Below, piece after piece: positions 1 through 8,957 of a DNA stretch of 64,000 nt. The notes under the pieces were generated by a model. It searched no databases and was not told the origin of the DNA. It saw only the letters and a program-made list of their open reading frames with translations. Location of the stretch: NCBI GenBank assembly GCA_963703365.1, contig OY969815.1, forward strand, positions 3,080,577 to 3,144,576, read 5' to 3'. The translations under genes and the position numbers were made by a program. Numbering within the stretch: the stretch's first letter is position 1; each line of letters begins with the position of its first letter. Source of the stretch: an uncultured Bacteroidota bacterium. Lineage in GTDB: Bacteria; Bacteroidota; Ignavibacteria; Kryptoniales; JAKASW01.

Positions 1-267
1 TCCGTCTATCTTCACGCCGAAGGCATTCTCTATGGCATGAACGGAACTCATCTGGTAAGCTATGGGACAGATTCCGCAAATGCGCGCGGTGATGTCGGGC
101 GCTTCCGAATACTTCCTGCCGCGCAAGAAAGCTTCGAAGAACCGCGGCGGCTCGAAAACCTTGAACTTGACATCGTCAACCTGGCCGTCCTTAGTCTTTA
201 TGAGAAGCGAGCTTTCGCCTTCGACTCGCGCAAGGTAATCGACTTTTATAGCTTTGTTATTTTTCAT
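1..267 (-). CDS. [NiFe]-hydrogenase large (alpha) subunit, N-terminal 89 codons only. The gene continues beyond the window start.
   Basis: This ORF is not in the ORF track. My own minus-strand translation from the ATG at 267..265 gives [72 protein letters not shown]... It contains the N-terminal Ni-Fe ligand motif RxCGxC (RICGIC). It overlaps the stop of the small-subunit gene by 11 nt. Confidence 0.85.
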
Positions 268-1045
268 GCGCTTCACTCTCTCTTCGAAATGCGTCTGCGT
301 AAGCGTTGAATTTCCGGAAGTCAAGTGAAATATCAAGCTCGGTCAGACCGAGCTCTTTGAAATGTTCAGCAAGAGAAGATGTGTTAGGGGATTCCATCGG
401 TCCGAAGCAGCCGTAACAGCCGCGATTGTAAGACGGACAAATTGCGCCGCACCCGGCTTGAGTCACCGGTCCAAGACACGGTGTTCCCTGTGCCACCATG
501 ACGCAAACGCTTCCTTTCAGTTTGCACTCGATGCAGACGCTATATGCATAAATATTAGGTTTTCGTTTATTGAGAAATGCGCTGATGACTTCGATAAGTT
601 GATATTTGTTTATCGGACAGCCGCGAAGCTCATAATCAACATGAACGAACGAGCCGATCGGTAGGGACCTGTCGAGAGTTGAAATGTATTCCGGCGACCC
701 ATAAACTATGCGGATGAAATCCTTGATGTCCTTCCAATTCCTGAGTGCCTGAATTCCACCGGCTGTTGCACAGGCGCCGATAGTGATCAGTGCGCCGCAC
801 GACTTTCTTATTTCCCTTATGTGTTCGACGTCGTTCGGTGTTGTAATGCTGCCTTCGACAATACCGATGTCGTAAGGCCCTTTCAGCATTCTCCGGCTTG
901 CTTCCGGGAAAAATGCGATGTCGATCGCTTCGGCGACATCAAGAAGTTCTTTTTCCGCATCCAAGAGCGAAAGCTGGCAGCCATCGCACGAAGCGAATTT
1001 GAAAACTGCTACTTTCGGCTTTCCGCCGTTCTTGCGTCCGGGCAT
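257..1045 (-). CDS. [NiFe]-hydrogenase small (delta) subunit, group 3b (sulfhydrogenase/NAD(P)-coupled) type
   Basis: It has the N-terminal [12 protein letters not shown] proximal-cluster motif and C-terminal Cys clusters (CIECK..., [24 protein letters not shown]). I chose the start at MPGRK (ATG at 1045), 1 nt after the upstream gene's stop, rather than the ORF-track start at 1159. Confidence 0.85.
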
Positions 1046-1046
1046 T

Positions 1047-1931
1047 TTATATTTCCTTTTTCTCAAGTAAATGGTAAACTTCCGGCAGCTTAAAAACAGG
1101 TCCGTCCTTGCAAATGAACTCCGGTCCAAACTGGCAATGGCCGCAGACTCCAATTCCACATTTCATATTTCTTTCCATTGAAATGTAAATCTGCTCTTGT
1201 GTTAGCCCGCGCCGCTGAAGCTCTTCAACTGTGAATTTCATCATAACTTCAGGTCCGCATACCATAGCGATCGTCGCCCTCGAATCCATCTTGATATAAG
1301 AAAATAAATTTGTCACGACGCCTATGTATCCTTTCCAGCTTGAGTCGCCACGATCGACGGTTATGATGACCTCGATATTCGGCAGCTTGCTCCACTGCTC
1401 AAGCTCGACGCGGTATAGAAGGTCGAGCGGGCTGCGCGCTCCGTATAGAATTATTACCCGCTTGAAATCTTCTCTTCGCCTGATCAGCGAATATATCACC
1501 GGTCTCAGTGGAGCCAATCCGATTCCACCGGCGGCGATGCAAACATCTTTGCCGACGGCTTCATCTAACGGCCATCCTTTGCCGTAAGGTCCGCGGAGTC
1601 CAATTAAGTCCCCGCGCTTCAACTTTGAAAGTGCCGACGTGACGGTTCCGACGCGATGAATCGTGTGTGCCAGCATATTCGGCTTCTTCGGATCGGAGCT
1701 GATGGAAATGGCGGATTCGCCGATGCCGAATGCATAAACCATGTTGAATTGGCCCGGCACGAATGAAAATATCTTGCCGTCGTTTTGCGGATGATCGATA
1801 AGAAGAGTAAATGTATCATCGGTTTCCCAGATCACTCTGCGAATTGCCGCGAGTGAAGGAATCATCGGGTTGTCAATCAAAGCTGCTGTTTCAAGAATCG
1901 ATTCGCTCATTCTAATTGGCTCCGATTTCAT
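1047..1931 (-). CDS. Hydrogenase gamma subunit: FAD/NAD(P)-binding oxidoreductase with a C-terminal 2Fe-2S site (PyrK/AsrB-like)
   Basis: It has a ferredoxin-reductase-like layout, a GGIGLAP nucleotide-binding motif and a C-terminal [10 protein letters not shown] cluster motif. It sits between the beta and delta subunit genes. Confidence 0.8.
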
Positions 1932-1944
1932 TTTTCATTTTCTA

Positions 1945-2421
1945 CTACTTACTTTCTACTGCCATTCCATACATATCGAGCAATTGCAAGCGAGTGGCTT
2001 CAAGACGCCGTTCCAGCACTGCGGAAAATCTGCGCAACATTTCATATCCGAAGTGATGATCTGTTTCGCATTTCGTCCGTAAGCAAGTCGCATCTATTGC
2101 GAAGACATGAACTCCTTCCACCGCAACAGCATCGAAATGCCGGCGGTAGGGAGAAATAAGCCAAGACCATCCGAGTACTTCACCCGGTCCCAACGTCTGT
2201 ACCCTGATTTGCCCTTTCTCGCCGGCTTGAATCTCAAGTGCAACCCTGCCGCTTCGAATAAGGTAAAAGTTTGTTGCGTTTTCTCCTTCGCGGAATAAAC
2301 GTGCCCCTTCTTGAAGTACAACATTGGAAGCGCATGACGTCAAGGTTTCGATTAGGTCATCGCTCGTGTCGCTTAGGAAAGGATGCTTACGCAGAGATTG
2401 AGACAGATCGTGCTGTTCCAT
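1945..2421 (-). CDS. Standalone cyclic-nucleotide-binding (Crp/cNMP effector) domain protein with no HTH
   Basis: The 158-aa product contains ...VLQEGARLFREGENATNFYLIRSGRVALEI...GPGEVLGWSWL..., typical of the cNMP-binding beta-roll. An AAGGAG RBS precedes the ATG. The gene is embedded in the hydrogenase operon. Confidence 0.75.
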   Translation of the reverse strand: MEQHDLSQSLRKHPFLSDTSDDLIETLTSCASNVVLQEGARLFREGENATNFYLIRSGRVALEIQAGEKGQIRVQTLGPGEVLGWSWLISPYRRHFDAVAVEGVHVFAIDATCLRTKCETDHHFGYEMLRRFSAVLERRLEATRLQLLDMYGMAVESK

Positions 2422-2439
2422 GATATTCTCCTTCTTATC

Positions 2440-3579
2440 TTATTTTTCTGTACCTCTTAGAGCATTTATTTCGGCCGTTACGTCAATGCCGACAGGACAC
2501 CACGAGATGCATCTTCCGCATCCCACACATCCGAACACGCCAAACTGGTCCATCCATGATGAAAATTTGTGCGTCAACCATTGCCGGTAACGGGACTTCG
2601 TAGTAATGCGGAAATTCCCGCCTGCAACTTTAGAAAAATCCATGGTAAAGCATGAATCCCATCTTCTCAATCGCTCTGCGTTTTGACCCGACAAATCGGT
2701 TACGTCTTCGAGCGTGGAGCAGAAACAGGTCGGACAGACCATGGTGCAATTGCCGCAAGACAGACAGCGTTTAGCCACATCGTCCCAGTGAGAGCTTTCG
2801 AGATTATCCGAAAGAAACTTGGGCAGGTCTTTAGTCTTCAGCAATTTCTTCATTTTATTTTCAGCGCGGCAAATAAGCTTGTCGGCTTCCTCAACTTCTT
2901 CCTTCGTGGCTGCAGGTGTTTTGATCTGTTCCATGATCATAGACCCGCGTTCGCTACCGATTTCAGTGAGGAAGTAGTGATCGCCGTTGGTGAGAACTTC
3001 CGTCATGGCAAGGTCAAATTTCTCTTTTGCCTTCGGTCCTGCATTCATCGAGGCGCAAAAACAAGTTCCGCCTGCATCGGTGCAATTAACCGCAACAACA
3101 AAAGCATTTTCTCTTAATCGTTTATAGTATTGGTCTGGATAATTATCGGAATCGAACACCATGTCCTGGATTAAAATTGCACTAAGTTCGCACGGCCGTA
3201 CCCCGATGAAAGCATACTTGATATTGGGATCCTGGTCGCCGGATATTTCGAGAGTTTTCCCGCTTTTTTTAATCGAGAATAATTTTCTATGAGGCGGATC
3301 GAGAAAACGTTTCCATGACTGCGGTGCAGCATGAAAGCCGAAAAATTTCTGTTTGTTTTGCTTCACGAGCCGATAAGTTGACGGCGCTTGCTCGTCTGTC
3401 CAGCCCATCGGTAGTTCGTTGGTGCCGTCGATCTTGTCGTAAACGATTGCTCCGTCTCGAAAAACCGGACCTACGGTCATGTAACCATCTTTTTGGAGTG
3501 CAGTGAATAGCTGTTGAAAATTTTTGTGGCTTAGCTTGAGAATTTTGTCCATGGTAGCAAACAGTTTTGTCGTATTCAC
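2440..3579 (-). CDS. Hydrogenase beta subunit: 4Fe-4S dicluster protein (AsrA/HydB-like)
   Basis: It has two ferredoxin-type motifs, CLSCGNCTMVCPTCFC and CVGCGRCISWCP. It is the first gene of the minus-strand operon. The start is either GTG at 3579 or ATG at 3552. Confidence 0.8.
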   Translation of the reverse strand: MNTTKLFATMDKILKLSHKNFQQLFTALQKDGYMTVGPVFRDGAIVYDKIDGTNELPMGWTDEQAPSTYRLVKQNKQKFFGFHAAPQSWKRFLDPPHRKLFSIKKSGKTLEISGDQDPNIKYAFIGVRPCELSAILIQDMVFDSDNYPDQYYKRLRENAFVVAVNCTDAGGTCFCASMNAGPKAKEKFDLAMTEVLTNGDHYFLTEIGSERGSMIMEQIKTPAATKEEVEEADKLICRAENKMKKLLKTKDLPKFLSDNLESSHWDDVAKRCLSCGNCTMVCPTCFCSTLEDVTDLSGQNAERLRRWDSCFTMDFSKVAGGNFRITTKSRYRQWLTHKFSSWMDQFGVFGCVGCGRCISWCPVGIDVTAEINALRGTEK

Positions 3580-3836: not shown

Positions 3837-5798
3837 ATGGCGCAGAAAGACACCGGCGGGTCGGAGAAGAGTCGGTTACAGAATGCCCAATCAGATGGGG
3901 GTAACAATAAAAATCTTGGTGGCGAATTTTTTTATCCAGCGCCGGAAGTTGTCGCCCAGGCAAATGTGCAAAACCCTGAGTCGGTTTACAAGGAAGCGGA
4001 GACGGACCTTGAAGGCTTTTGGAGCAGACGAGCAAGCGAACTTGAGTGGTACAAGAAATGGGACAAAGTCCTTGACGATTCGAACAAGCCGTTTTATAAA
4101 TGGTTTGTCGGCGGCAAAACAAATATTGTCCTTAATGCACTCGATCGTCATGTGAAGACATGGCGACGGAACAAACTCGCTCTGATCTGGGAGGGGGAGA
4201 ACGGAGATCTGCGGACATTTTCATATCACGCTTTGAACAGGGAAGTCTGCCGGTTCGCGAACGTGCTGAGAAGTATGGGAGTGGGGAAAGGAGACAGGGT
4301 AACGATTTATATGCCTCGAATTCCCGAAACGGTGATTGCCATGCTTGCAACTGCGAAGATCGGTGCAATACACTCCGTAGTTTACGGGGGCTTTTCCGTA
4401 GAGGCACTTCATGGCAGGATAGAAGACAGCGAATCCAAAGTAATTGTTACTGCCGATGGAGGGTACATGAATGGAAAGACAGTCGAGCTGAAGAAGATTG
4501 TGGATGAAGCTTTGAAACGCACCGCTGCACCGGAGATAGTGATTGTCGTGAAGCGCACAGGCAAAGAAGTCCCGATGGAAGCGGGACGCGATTATTGGTA
4601 TCATGAGCTAATGAACCTGCCGCTGAGCCGCAACGGCGGCAAATCTCCCACAGAAGAAATGGATGCCGAAGATCCTCTTTACATTTTATATACATCTGGC
4701 ACTACCGGGAAGCCGAAAGCAATTCTTCACACTCACGGCGGGTATATGGTCGGGACGTATTCAACTCTGAAAGACGTATTCGATCTGAAAGAAGAAGATC
4801 GATGGTGGTGTACTGCCGACCCTGGCTGGGTTACCGGACATTCCTATATTGTCTATGCGCCGCTCGTGGCGGGAGCAACTTCGTTTATGTATGAAGGCGC
4901 ACCAACGTATCCATATCCAGATAGATGGTGGACGATGATAGAAAAGTATGGCATCACGGTTTTCTATGCGACGCCGACTGCGATCCGCGGATTGATGCGA
5001 TATGGCGAGGCATGGCCGAACCGGCACGATCTTTCTACGCTGAGATTGCTCGGCTCGGTCGGTGAGCCCATAAATCCGGAAGCATGGCGGTGGTATCACA
5101 GAGTCGTCGGTAAAGAGAAATGTCCTATCATGGATACGTGGTGGCAAACCGAAACGGGAATGTTTATGATTGCGCCATTGCCGACGACACCGCTTAAACC
5201 CGGTTCGGGAACGAAGCCGTACTTCGGCGTGCAGGCAGACGTGGTTGATGAGGCAGGCAATCCCGTGAAACTCGGTGAAGAGGGCTATTTGGTTCTAAAG
5301 CGACCATGGCCTGCAATGCTGCGAACAATTTACAAAGACCCCGATCGATACGTCAGCACTTACTGGAGTAAATTCCCCGGGTATTATTTTGTAGGTGACT
5401 CTGCGAGAAAGGATGAAGATGGATATTTCTGGATAATCGGCAGGGTCGACGACGTTATAAAAGTCAGCGGCTACAGACTTGGCACGGCAGAACTCGAGTC
5501 AGCGTTTGTCAGCCATCATGCCGTTGCTGAGGCCGCAGTAATTGGACTTCCGCACGAAATAAAAGGGATTGCAATTCATGCATATGTAACTTTGAAAGCC
5601 GGATTCGAAGGGAGCGAAGATTTAGCAGAAGAATTAAGGCAGCATGTGGCTCATGAAATGGGACCGATTGCAAAACCCGAGAAAATAAATTTCACGACTT
5701 CGCTTCCGAAAACGCGGAGCGGGAAAATCATGCGGCGGGTCTTAAAAGCACGGGCACTTGGAATGCCGGAAGGTGATCTAAGTACATTGGAAGAATAA
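3837..5798 (+). CDS. acs: Acetyl-CoA synthetase (AMP-forming)
   Basis: The 653-aa product has the [14 protein letters not shown]-binding motif, a WWQTETG motif and a C-terminal [11 protein letters not shown] motif. An AAAAGGAG RBS precedes the start. Confidence 0.95.
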
Positions 5799-5842: not shown

Positions 5843-6514
5843 TCAGCTTGAGCCGGTGGTTAGGCGTTTTCGCTTTTGCTTTGCAATATATTTATTGTGA
5901 AGATCGATAAATAATTTCATTAAGCCATAGGCATCTGTTAAACACTGATTTTGCATTTTTTCTGTTACTGCAAATATATTGCCCCTATGAATCAACCTAT
6001 TGCGATTATGACGCAACTTTTGGTAAAAGGAAATAATATTTGTATAGTCGATTCTTGATTGCCGACTTAACTGTTTTACAATGTCACTGAATTTAGTATC
6101 CGTAAGATTATGGAATAAAGAGAGCTTTTCGGTCATCGAATCACTTGATAATAATCTATCTTGCAAAGCATCAGGAATATTTTGTTTGATCATCAGATGA
6201 CTGAGGAAATCATCAAATAGCACTTCACCAAGTGAAGAATAAAAAACAACAATCGCCAATCTGTGGTTTGAATTTAATGAAGGGAATATCTTAAGATTAT
6301 CAGAAGGGCTTGCATTTATGTTGTGGTATTCAAGCATAAGATGAGCAAGACTCATAACACCAAAAGTGAAGAATTGTATCGTACCCTTACTTCGGCCTTT
6401 GCAGCGTGAGCAATTAAAGCCAATACTAATCGTGACATATCCGCAAGTCTTGCACCTATGGCTATTGGTCACAATATGCTTAATTGAATGACTCTCATAT
6501 TCTGGAATAGACAT
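5843..6514 (-). CDS. Hypothetical protein: N-terminal CxxC-x10-CxxC zinc ribbon plus a C-terminal HEPN-like region with an RNxxxH motif
   Basis: The 223-aa product has C21xxC24...C35xxC38. The motif RNRLIH (aa 171-176, nt 5987-6004) fits the HEPN Rx4-6H signature. GC is about 30% against about 45% in the flanks. Confidence 0.6.
   Translation of the reverse strand: MSIPEYESHSIKHIVTNSHRCKTCGYVTISIGFNCSRCKGRSKGTIQFFTFGVMSLAHLMLEYHNINASPSDNLKIFPSLNSNHRLAIVVFYSSLGEVLFDDFLSHLMIKQNIPDALQDRLLSSDSMTEKLSLFHNLTDTKFSDIVKQLSRQSRIDYTNIISFYQKLRHNRNRLIHRGNIFAVTEKMQNQCLTDAYGLMKLFIDLHNKYIAKQKRKRLTTGSS
5857..5872. repeat. Left arm of a 16-bp perfect inverted repeat (TGGTTAGGCGTTTTCG)
   Basis: It is the exact reverse complement of 6532-6547. 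It lies inside the last codons of the 223-aa ORF. Confidence 0.9.
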
Positions 6515-6653: not shown

Positions 6654-7280
6654 TCATTTTGTTTTCCTAAACATTAGCACAACTTCTCCTGCAACGAAGA
6701 ACTGTCTGTCATCAGGAGAAAAGCTCAGCACCTGGTAAGATTTATTTGAAGGTTTAAGATGCATTTTCTCATTTGCCAATTCGAAAAATCTTACGATCAA
6801 AACTCCGGCGGCACTTCCGAGAACAAGCGAGTTCTGTTCCGGCGTCACAACTCTTCTGCATATTACATAATCGCCTTTAAATAATCCCACGAGGTTCATC
6901 CCGTCGTCTGAAACTTTCACAGCGAAAAGTTCGCCTTCGGGTAGAAGCTTCGCGTCAAAGTGGAGCACATCTATAATGTTCGAGAAAATAATTTCTCGCG
7001 ATTCAATTCTTAAGACGACTGGAATAGTCCGAACCGATGGCGGCAGATCAGGATTTGCGAGTTCTGTTTTCGGAAGATTAATTCCACGTGAGCGCCCTGC
7101 CTCGCGTTCGATGTACCCCTTTCTTTCAAGTGCCTTCAACAAGTCGCTGACCGCTCGCGTCGAGCTGATTCCCATCTGTGCACCCAATTCACGGAATGTC
7201 GGCGGCTTCGAGTGATCTTTAATATATCGCCGAATGAACTCGAGCGCCTCACCTTGCCTTTTCGTTAATCCTCTCGCCAT
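6654..7280 (-). CDS. LexA-family protein (LexA wHTH plus S24-like fold) with apparently degenerate autoproteolysis residues
   Basis: The N-terminus LTKRQGEALEFIRRYIKDHSKPPTFRELGAQMGISSTRAVSDLLKALERKGYIE...SRGI matches the LexA DNA-binding domain. The C-terminal half aligns by eye with E. coli LexA but differs at key positions (see findings). I chose the start at MARGL (7280). Confidence 0.8.
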   Translation of the reverse strand: MARGLTKRQGEALEFIRRYIKDHSKPPTFRELGAQMGISSTRAVSDLLKALERKGYIEREAGRSRGINLPKTELANPDLPPSVRTIPVVLRIESREIIFSNIIDVLHFDAKLLPEGELFAVKVSDDGMNLVGLFKGDYVICRRVVTPEQNSLVLGSAAGVLIVRFFELANEKMHLKPSNKSYQVLSFSPDDRQFFVAGEVVLMFRKTK

Positions 7281-7432
7281 CAGAAAGTAAATTACACAAC
7301 ACAAGTTTAGCGGTCAAGAAGCATAAAGTACTTTTATTTGCTTTGTTTAGTATAAATATTATAACGGCAGTATATATGAAAAACACTTGAAATCTCTGAG
7401 AATTCAAGGGGATTTTTCTCGGTGATATTTAG

Positions 7433-7500
7433 GTGGGAAATTGTGACAAAAAACTTCTTGACTTTTGGAGCGTATTGGTTAAATTTCCAACGTGGTGGGG
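7433..7500 (+). promoter_or_regulatory. Candidate mraZ/dcw promoter-operator region with GTGGGR direct repeats
   Basis: GTGGGA lies at 7433-7438. GTGGGG lies at 7485-7490 and 7495-7500 (10-bp phase, GTGGGGAAAAGTGGGGAAGT). A TTGACT-N16-TAAATT element lies between them (7459-7486). Confidence 0.4.
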
Positions 7501-7581
7501 AAAAGTGGGGAAGTCCCCGATTTTTCCCTCGTTTACTAAAAAAATGTGTCCGAAGAATCTTTCGGAAAATTTAAGAGGAAC

Positions 7582-8040
7582 ATGTCGTCATTTAAAGGCC
7601 GGTACGAATACGTTTTAGATTCCAAAGGACGACTCAGCATTCCGGCGAAGTTGCGGAAAAGTCTTTCGTCGGAAGCAAACGACACTTTCGTTGTAACTCG
7701 TGGAGTCGAAAAATGTTTGTATGTTTATCCCCTCGACGAATGGCGGCAGCTCGAAGAAAAGCTCCGTTCCCTCAACCAGTTTCTGGAAAAACATAGATAC
7801 TTCACCAGAACACTTCTCATGTGGGCGTCGGAAGAATTTCCCTTGGACTCACAATCACGCATAACAATTCCCAAAACTTTACTCGAATTTGCTGAGATCG
7901 AAAAGGAAGTCGTGATCATCGGCGCTCTCGAAAGAATTGAACTCTGGAACCCGCAGACCTTCAACGAATATTTAAATTCGCAGCCTGAGAATTACGCGAA
8001 CGTTGTCGAACAAATTATGGCTGTAAATGTCGGCAAATAA
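7582..8040 (+). CDS. mraZ: Transcriptional regulator MraZ
   Basis: MSSFKGRYEYVLDSKGRLSIPAKLR and a second SpoVT/AbrB-like half (DSQSRITIPKTLL) are present. An AAGAGGA RBS precedes ATG 7582. It is the first gene of the dcw cluster. Confidence 0.9.
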   Translation: MSSFKGRYEYVLDSKGRLSIPAKLRKSLSSEANDTFVVTRGVEKCLYVYPLDEWRQLEEKLRSLNQFLEKHRYFTRTLLMWASEEFPLDSQSRITIPKTLLEFAEIEKEVVIIGALERIELWNPQTFNEYLNSQPENYANVVEQIMAVNVGK

Positions 8041-8957
8041 TGAACATTTATCACGAGCCAGTGTTGCTCAAGGAGAGCGTGGATTTCTTGGTCACTGACT
8101 TGGGTGGAACATACGTTGACGCAACTTTCGGCGGCGGCGGTCACTCCCGCGAGCTTCTCTCCCGACTACACCATAATGCGCGTGTCTTCGCCTTCGATGT
8201 TGACGAAAATTCACAGCGAGTTGCAAATGAGATTTCCTTGTCGGACGATAGACTGTTGTTTGTCAAAAAGAATTTTTCTCATATTGGAGATATTTTCGAG
8301 GATAAGAATTTAAAATCAGCCGCCGGATTTTTATTCGATCTCGGCGTGTCATCTTACCAGATAGATAATGAGCCTGGATTCAGCTACAGGCGCGATGAGA
8401 AACTTGATATGCGCTTGGATAAAGATCTCAAAACTTCGGCCTATGAAGTAATAAACTTGTACAATGTCGAAGCACTTGCGGAAGTGTTCAGCAAGTACGG
8501 CGAAGAACCGCGCTCACGTGCGCTTGCGAGAGTTGTCGTGAAACATCGGGAAAAAAACAAGATTAAAACGACTTTGCAATTTTCGGAGATCGCCGGAAAG
8601 GGTTGCGGAAAATCCGCGAAAACTTTGTCGAGAATTTTCCAGGCGATTCGCATCGAAGTGAATAAAGAACTCGATTCGCTTTCCGAAGCGTTGGAAGCGG
8701 CCGTGAGTCTCGCATCTCGCGGCGGCAGAGTAGTCGTAATTTCTTATCAGTCACTTGAAGATAGAATTGTCAAGGAAAAATTCAAGTATGAAGCTGCGGC
8801 ATGTGTTTGTCCGCCGCAGATGATTATTTGTACCTGCGGTAAGATTCCCCGTGTCAAAATTCTTACACGAAAGCCTGTTTTGCCGAATGAAGTTGAAGTC
8901 ATGCGCAATCGCAGAGCTCGAAGTGCGAAATTGAGAGTAGTCGAAAAAATTATATGA
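8040..8957 (+). CDS. rsmH: 16S rRNA (cytosine1402-N4)-methyltransferase RsmH
   Basis: HEPVLL...DATFGGGGHS...FDLGVSSYQID motifs are present. Its position after mraZ is conserved. Confidence 0.95.
   Translation: MNIYHEPVLLKESVDFLVTDLGGTYVDATFGGGGHSRELLSRLHHNARVFAFDVDENSQRVANEISLSDDRLLFVKKNFSHIGDIFEDKNLKSAAGFLFDLGVSSYQIDNEPGFSYRRDEKLDMRLDKDLKTSAYEVINLYNVEALAEVFSKYGEEPRSRALARVVVKHREKNKIKTTLQFSEIAGKGCGKSAKTLSRIFQAIRIEVNKELDSLSEALEAAVSLASRGGRVVVISYQSLEDRIVKEKFKYEAAACVCPPQMIICTCGKIPRVKILTRKPVLPNEVEVMRNRRARSAKLRVVEKII

Follow-up and report, generated by a model that had tools for sequence, protein, structure and literature searches.

A mraZ-linked LexA-family protein that has lost its self-cleavage determinants and is a candidate local repressor

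The window analysed here is a 64,000-nucleotide stretch of the genome of an uncultured Bacteroidota bacterium of the Kryptoniales lineage JAKASW01 (GenBank assembly GCA_963703365.1, contig OY969815.1, positions 3,080,577 to 3,144,576), and it carries a LexA-family gene whose product has lost both the scissile bond and the catalytic residues of LexA self-cleavage. The gene is transcribed divergently from mraZ, the first gene of the cell-division and cell-wall (dcw) operon. From comparisons at the sequence level, we read the protein as a local repressor that resists cleavage, regulates its own gene and is tied to the dcw promoter region, and we give this overall reading a probability of roughly 0.7. 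Its parts differ in firmness: membership in a non-cleavable, conserved, mraZ-linked subfamily is very probable, and a role as a local auto-repressor that modulates dcw stands at about even odds. The features of the gene and its protein are as follows.

6654..7280, minus strand: LexA-family gene, catalytically dead, 208 amino acids, stop codon included (open reading frame and translation, Pfam, TIGR00498)
7083..7274, minus strand: N-terminal LexA-type winged helix-turn-helix, residues 3–66 (PF01726 LexA_DNA_bind, 82.2 bits)
6678..6983, minus strand: C-terminal S24-fold domain without catalytic residues, residues 100–201 (PF00717 Peptidase_S24, 45.5 bits)
6996..7001, minus strand: codons of Ser94-Arg95, at the site of the E. 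coli Ala84-Gly85 scissile bond (alignments)
6900..6902, minus strand: codon of Gly127, at the site of the nucleophile Ser119; Ala in most orthologues (alignments)
6789..6791, minus strand: codon of Arg164, at the site of the general base Lys156; Arg in all degenerate-type proteins tabulated (alignments)

The positions equivalent to the E. coli cleavage determinants were read from a HMMER alignment to the LexA chains 1jhf/1jhh and from two MAFFT alignments, and all three concur. The scissile-bond segment VAAGEP of E. coli aligns with IESREI, which places Ser94-Arg95 at Ala84-Gly85; the nucleophile segment VSGMSM aligns with VSDDGM, with Gly127 for Ser119; and the general-base segment TVKRL aligns with IVRFF, with Arg164 for Lys156. 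Ala-Gly dipeptides occur in the protein only at residues 61, 158 and 197, all outside the linker and cleavage loop; none lies between residues 62 and 157, and Gly-Gly and Cys-Gly are absent from all 208 residues. As the scissile bond and both dyad residues are missing, RecA-stimulated self-cleavage by the LexA mechanism would not be expected. An initial annotation, made by eye from the sequence alone, had proposed these losses together with a LexA-type winged helix-turn-helix and an S24-fold alignment, and each of these proposals stood up to the formal alignments and to structural comparison. The AlphaFold2 model (mean predicted local distance difference test score 87.2) has the full-length LexA structures 3k2z and 1jhh as its best matches in the Protein Data Bank (PDB; Foldseek E 1e-15 to 1e-16). 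Its N-terminal domain superposes on 1lea with a root-mean-square deviation (rmsd) of 1.1 Å at 45% identity, and its C-terminal half on LexA C-domains with an rmsd of 2–3 Å and a target-normalised template-modelling score of ~0.8 (both Foldseek). In addition, the protein scores 122.6 bits against the NCBIfam model TIGR00498 (lexA), above the curated cut-off of 110.95. As judged from the model, the LexA fold is retained and the alignment is sound. The start codon was taken as the ATG at 7280, where the orthologues all start with MARG or MSKG.

Orthologues in public databases (63–97% identity), whose named sources are Candidatus Kryptonia/Kryptoniota or "Bacteroidetes bacterium", are all about 208 amino acids long except for contig-end fragments and one 220-amino-acid call, and genome searches found the gene in 25/26 genomes of the same family (f1). 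In all f1 orthologues retrieved (63–93% identity), the scissile-bond site reads Ser-Arg or Ser-Lys, the nucleophile site Ala or Gly, and the general-base site Arg. Between orthologues, the proportion of synonymous differences (pS) was 0.56–0.85, which is saturated, and that of nonsynonymous differences (pN) was 0.04–0.24, with a ratio of nonsynonymous to synonymous rates (dN/dS) of 0.01–0.06 in both domains where it was computable. For the C-terminal domain, pN was 0.04–0.28 against a saturated pS, and this dead domain is strongly constrained by purifying selection. Since all catalytic features are lost, the gene could be taken for a duplicated lexA that has lost its function and is decaying, which is very hard to credit: the 208-amino-acid frame is intact in ~30 orthologues, dN/dS is low, the promoter is conserved, and the new residues Asp125 and Arg164 are invariant in both alignments of the clade described below. 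These conservation data effectively refute a remnant. Asp125 and Arg164, which lie at the former active site, may replace the lost residues structurally or form part of a new binding pocket.

The same pattern was found in proteins 28–43% identical to the LexA-like protein and belonging to many families of the phylum (denoted here by codes): D-[DNE]-[GA]-M for G-D-S-M, Arg for Lys, and a loop that lacks Ala-Gly and varies in sequence between families. The clade motif as tested was D-[DNE]-[GA]-[ML] for G-[DE]-S-M, and the LexA-like protein fits it (VSDDGM, with IVRFF and IESRE at the other two sites). By record or source name, the carriers are Rhodothermus, Rhodocaloribacter litoris, Salinibacter, Salinivenus, Rubricoccaceae, Chloroherpetonaceae/Thermochlorobacter, Candidatus Thermokryptus mobilis and an unclassified Rhodothermia bacterium, and their dead forms are annotated as "repressor LexA", "LexA family protein", "S24 family peptidase", "winged helix DNA-binding protein" or "hypothetical protein". 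The genomes sampled cover only part of each group, and related ones among them do not count as independent cases. When 57 LexA-type proteins were placed in a maximum-likelihood tree by a quick search that took in no cyanobacterial sequence, the 24 degenerate proteins, including the LexA-like protein, formed one clade with a support of 100 by the Shimodaira–Hasegawa-like approximate likelihood ratio test (the only support measure used), and the clade kept a support of 98 after the alignment columns around the three sites were dropped. Moreover, when 1.84 billion cluster representatives (50%-identity clusters) were searched with a profile, 1,237 matched at E <= 1e-30, and Arg stood at the Lys position in at least 74 of the best 150 of these (Ser-site/Lys-site pairs: 51 Gly/Arg, 11 Ala/Arg, 8 Ser/Arg, 3 Thr/Arg and 1 Asn/Arg). 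Some relatives with Arg at the Lys position (P0117, P0120, P0122, P0241, P0265 and P0280) keep the Ser, and P0265 and P0280 keep an Ala-Gly as well; such variants may be intermediate stages on the way to losing self-cleavage, and they give a hint of which determinants went first.

The second line of evidence is the linkage to the dcw operon, whose first two genes lie as follows.

7582..8040, plus strand: mraZ, first dcw gene, divergent from the LexA-like gene (PF02381, 112.8 bits; start set by orthologue length, 152 amino acids)
8040..8957, plus strand: rsmH (mraW), second dcw gene (PF01795, 319 bits)

A spacer of 301 bp separates the LexA-like gene from mraZ. At orthologous loci of 88%, 81% and 63% identity, mraZ-rsmH-ftsL-ftsI-murE lies divergently upstream, and the opposite flank is variable. 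Overall, mraZ-rsmH is divergently adjacent at all degenerate-type loci tabulated except the f7 pair (L068, and L017, a 1.9-kb contig that is uninformative on linkage), as well as at L073. The linked loci span nine coded families (f1, f44, f17, f29, f34, f21, f16, f6 and f40), and 17/19 named Rhodothermales loci (Rhodothermus, Salinibacter, Salinivenus and relatives) have a divergent mraZ-rsmH. By comparison, 0/61 Ser/Lys-type LexA loci from other phyla had mraZ within 2.5 kb, and the canonical-type loci that these searches also returned were in no case divergent from mraZ-rsmH. The divergence from the mraZ/dcw promoter, noted for this locus in the initial annotation, proved to be a conserved and informative feature across families. 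Because it persists across lineages whose MraZ is 32–60% identical to the MraZ of the source genome, the linkage suggests that the gene is functionally coupled to the dcw promoter region.

Within the spacer, the following promoters and candidate operators were assigned.

7289..7317, minus strand: predicted promoter of the LexA-like gene, -35 TTGACC (7317..7312), 17-bp spacer, -10 TAATTT (7294..7289)
7287..7310, no strand: imperfect palindrome GTAAATT-N10-AGTTTAG, candidate auto-operator, covering the -10 and spacer of that promoter
7345..7369, no strand: conserved spacer block GTTTAG...ATTATAACGGCA (alignment of 22 loci)
7458..7485, plus strand: predicted mraZ/dcw promoter TTGACT-N16-TAAATT (sequence; block conserved in the 22-locus alignment)
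7492..7513, plus strand: GTGGTGGGGAAAAGTGGGGAAG, MraZ-box-like direct repeats right after the mraZ -10

The promoter block of the LexA-like gene is conserved in the spacer alignment of 22 genus-level loci, and its mRNA is probably leaderless, since the ATG lies only ~8 nucleotides past the -10. The candidate auto-operator is weak and AT-rich, with 4 matches in the genome at <=1 mismatch. From the block at 7345..7369, ATTATAACGGCAG recurs at the locus of a 63%-identical orthologue (L063). On the mraZ side, repeats of the GTGGGG/GTGGT type occur upstream of mraZ in most spacers of distant families, which is consistent with MraZ operator boxes. Several other spacer elements were considered and set aside. 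GTTGG-N8-CCAAC, over the mraZ -10, keeps only TTGG/CCAA in the genus and is missing in the 63%-identical orthologues, and GTGTAA-N-TTACAC, which is perfect in the 81%-identical orthologue L009, showed no enrichment over a reversed-pattern control. When the spacer words ATAACGGCA, TTATAACGGCA, GTTTAG pairs, TTGTGTTGTG and GTTGG-N8-CCAAC were used to look for a regulon, the matches were mostly intragenic and shared no common extended motif. Motif searching, which the initial annotation had put forward as a route to the regulon of the LexA-like protein, gave no regulon-like distribution in the source genome.

Distant families have clear LexA-box-like palindromes near the start of the LexA-like gene, often in two copies. 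The spacer palindrome is ACTGAACA-N3-TGTTCAGT in Chloroherpetonaceae, TTGAAC-N4-GTTCAA in Thermokryptus and GGTGAAAA-N2-TTTTCACC in Rhodothermus, and other families have GGTGAT-N6-ATCACC, GGTGTAAA-N2-TTTACACC or CTGT-N8-ACAG. Whole-genome scans of three Rhodothermus genomes recovered GGTGAAAA-N2-TTTTCACC at <=1 mismatch only at the two spacer sites, and at three mismatches the counts were the same as for the control. Likewise, in three Chloroherpetonaceae genomes the two best sites of ACTGAACA-N3-TGTTCAGT were those in the spacer; extra matches in two Chloroherpetonaceae genomes fell within plsX and an ABC-transporter gene and were treated as chance. As the palindromes are best or unique in the spacer of the Rhodothermus genomes and the three Chloroherpetonaceae genomes scanned, they point to a dedicated local regulator and not to the master of a regulon.

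Several observations weigh against a local repressor of the dcw region. The source genus has no palindrome as clear as those of the other families in the 22-locus alignment, and none of its candidate motifs is enriched genome-wide. A sub-branch in f7 (L068 1477-2148; L162/L163 3001-3663), with the motif DDAM and the loop GDGDADNP, is dead at the sites yet does not lie beside mraZ, adjoining instead acpS, a HAD hydrolase gene and an MbtH-like gene, and the Rhodothermales loci L086 and L093 have no mraZ within 2.5 kb. In a tree built from the N-terminal domain only, the dead clade is not resolved. Finally, the palindromes of the other families adjoin the LexA-like gene, ~100–150 bp upstream of the mraZ -35, and since they sit so far from it, synteny is what would suggest direct control of the dcw promoter. 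The missing palindrome and the f7 sub-branch would also fit a global regulator with a degenerate, non-palindromic site, for which the mraZ linkage is a frozen accident of gene order. We consider this unlikely, given that the linkage is kept across such divergent MraZ lineages and that the site is unique to the spacer in the families scanned.

The LexA-like protein belongs to an old, monophyletic group of transcription factors derived from LexA, and the S24 domain of this group is now a non-catalytic module, presumably for dimerisation. In the local reading that we prefer, a dimer would bind the shared spacer and repress its own, probably leaderless, promoter, and the mraZ/dcw promoter, ~170 bp away, may be influenced by it or co-regulated with it. 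Insensitive to self-cleavage induced by activated RecA (RecA*), the protein would act constitutively or respond to another input; regulated proteolysis is one candidate, and binding of a partner, or of a ligand in the remodelled Asp-Asp...Arg pocket, is another. DNA-damage control in the source genome would then fall to its two intact LexA paralogs.

These paralogs bear on the initial annotation's question of whether a canonical lexA exists elsewhere in the genome (3.15 Mb, one contig), in which three proteins, including the LexA-like protein, exceed the TIGR00498 cut-off. Both of the other two have Ala-Gly, Ser and Lys intact, are 22–29% identical to the LexA-like protein and fall outside its clade in the tree. 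Paralog 1 (C1:46358-46951, 223 bits; at 1501-2130 of the extracted locus L001) is followed by a gene for a DinB-like Y-family polymerase, and the perfect palindrome TAGTAGA-N6-TCTACTA lies over its promoter (L001 1455-1480); this palindrome is unique in the genome at 0–1 mismatch, with a single 2-mismatch site at C1:1105491. Paralog 2 (C1:1315932-1316525, 131 bits; at L002 1498-2124) has its own unique palindrome, ACCATACA-N2-TGTATGGT, over its own promoter, and 3' of it (L002 2225-3208) lie genes for proteins of 223 and 101 amino acids that have no Pfam match and are possibly an ImuA-like mutagenesis cassette. The boxes of both paralogs, each essentially unique to its own promoter, are absent from the mraZ spacer. 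Elsewhere, proteins of 214–223 amino acids that have a LexA-type DNA-binding domain and keep Ala-Gly, Ser and Lys (L069-L072, L074-L076; …VWPTYREI…RSPNSVTQN…) adjoin rplU or recO and are not near mraZ; a protein of this type is present in 33/33 sampled genomes of one coded family and in some others.

In other genomes the dead form stands alone: it is the sole full-length LexA homolog at E <= 1e-5 in the Rhodothermus-type genomes G003, G008, G072 and G076 and in several Chloroherpetonaceae genomes, some Chloroherpetonaceae genomes having additional S24-only, UmuD-like matches. Rhodothermus-type and several Chloroherpetonaceae lineages may thus be without a self-cleaving LexA. Such genomes, in which the dead form is the only LexA candidate, and the passing of the TIGR00498 cut-off lend something to the idea that the dead form is still a DNA-damage-responsive SOS repressor, inactivated by cleavage in trans, by ClpXP or Lon degradation, or by an anti-repressor induced by canonical LexA; links between LexA and cell division are also frequent in other bacteria. 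However, none of the three cleavage determinants is kept and the loop sequence differs from family to family, the source genome has two intact paralogs with neither of their boxes in the spacer, and no SOS-like regulon accompanies the palindromes in the Rhodothermus and Chloroherpetonaceae genomes scanned, so that we regard an SOS role as improbable.

The other flank of the LexA-like gene is occupied by the following features.

1-3579, minus strand: group-3-type [NiFe] hydrogenase operon (Fer4_22 subunit, NAD-binding/2Fe-2S subunit, small subunit)
3837-5798, plus strand: acs
5843-6514, minus strand: gene for a 223-amino-acid Cys-rich protein, between the LexA-like gene and acs (no Pfam match)

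A stand-alone gene for a cyclic-nucleotide (cNMP)-binding domain lies at 1945-2421 within the hydrogenase operon, in the same order in L007 and L008. The gene at 5843-6514 was considered as part of a two-gene module with the LexA-like gene and rejected, as it has no Pfam match and is missing between the LexA-like gene and acs in L007 and L008. The initial annotation had connected the LexA-like gene to the hydrogenase by analogy with the LexA of Synechocystis sp. PCC 6803 (Sll1626), a non-cleavable global regulator (PMC3091678, PMC7567884) for which post-translational modification has been put forward as a means of control (PMC3091678, PMC7567884, PMC4759255). A redox or hydrogenase regulator of this kind, acting on the nearby hydrogenase and acs, would have in its favour that precedent and the same neighbours in the 88%-identical L007 and L008. 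These are, however, the only relatives in which acs and the hydrogenase adjoin the gene: the 81%-identical orthologue L009 has cstA on that flank, the 63%-identical orthologue loci L005 and L006 have no hydrogenase or acs genes on that side, and the flank is unrelated in other families, whereas mraZ is nearly constant. The hydrogenase promoter region also lies >3 kb away, beyond acs and the gene at 5843-6514. The link to the hydrogenase was therefore dropped, and we consider such a role even less probable than an SOS one. The analogy holds as a general precedent, both proteins being LexA homologs that have lost self-cleavage determinants and the Synechocystis protein acting outside the SOS response, but not in its details. 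Synechocystis LexA has Gly-Gly and Asp for Ser119 and retains the Lys (PMC3091678), which is also lost here; it is the cell's only LexA, whereas two intact paralogs coexist here; and it is a global regulator, whereas the evidence here points to a local one.

Compared with canonical E. coli LexA (PDB 1JHH/3JSO; TIGR00498), the LexA-like protein shares the two-domain architecture, the modelled fold and a full-length match above the curated cut-off. It differs in having Ser-Arg, Gly and Arg for Ala84-Gly85, Ser119 and Lys156, in that the motif scans brought out no SOS-type regulon, and in being encoded beside mraZ and not beside SOS genes. The non-canonical LexA of Bacteroidetes (Sanchez-Osuna et al, 2021; PMC8565304) is likewise an S24-family repressor of the same wide phylum that departs from the textbook case, but it keeps Ala-Gly and the Ser-Lys dyad, has a different, phage-CI-like N-terminal DNA-binding domain and controls a canonical SOS response; nothing is said in that paper of mraZ, Rhodothermus, Ignavibacteria or Chlorobi. 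Full-text literature searches for a LexA-like gene divergent from mraZ, or for LexA in Rhodothermus or Salinibacter, returned nothing relevant, and the dead, mraZ-linked LexA family is apparently undescribed.

Annotation pipelines name these dead forms "transcriptional repressor LexA", and an SOS switch would consequently be inferred where the protein cannot act as one. A dead LexA family beside the dcw operon would provide a further candidate regulator of cell division besides MraZ and a natural case of a self-cleaving repressor that has become a pseudo-enzyme, and since Rhodothermus, Rhodocaloribacter litoris and Salinibacter have cultured members, the family is directly testable. More speculatively, the dead protease pocket (Asp-Asp...Arg) might sense a non-SOS signal and couple it to transcription of the mraZ/dcw operon, in an undescribed, ancient family that spans Rhodothermales, Chloroherpetonaceae/Thermochlorobacter relatives and Kryptonia; we hold this only tentatively. 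If it is true, Rhodothermus-type organisms, in which no LexA homolog but the dead form was found, would live without any LexA-gated SOS switch.

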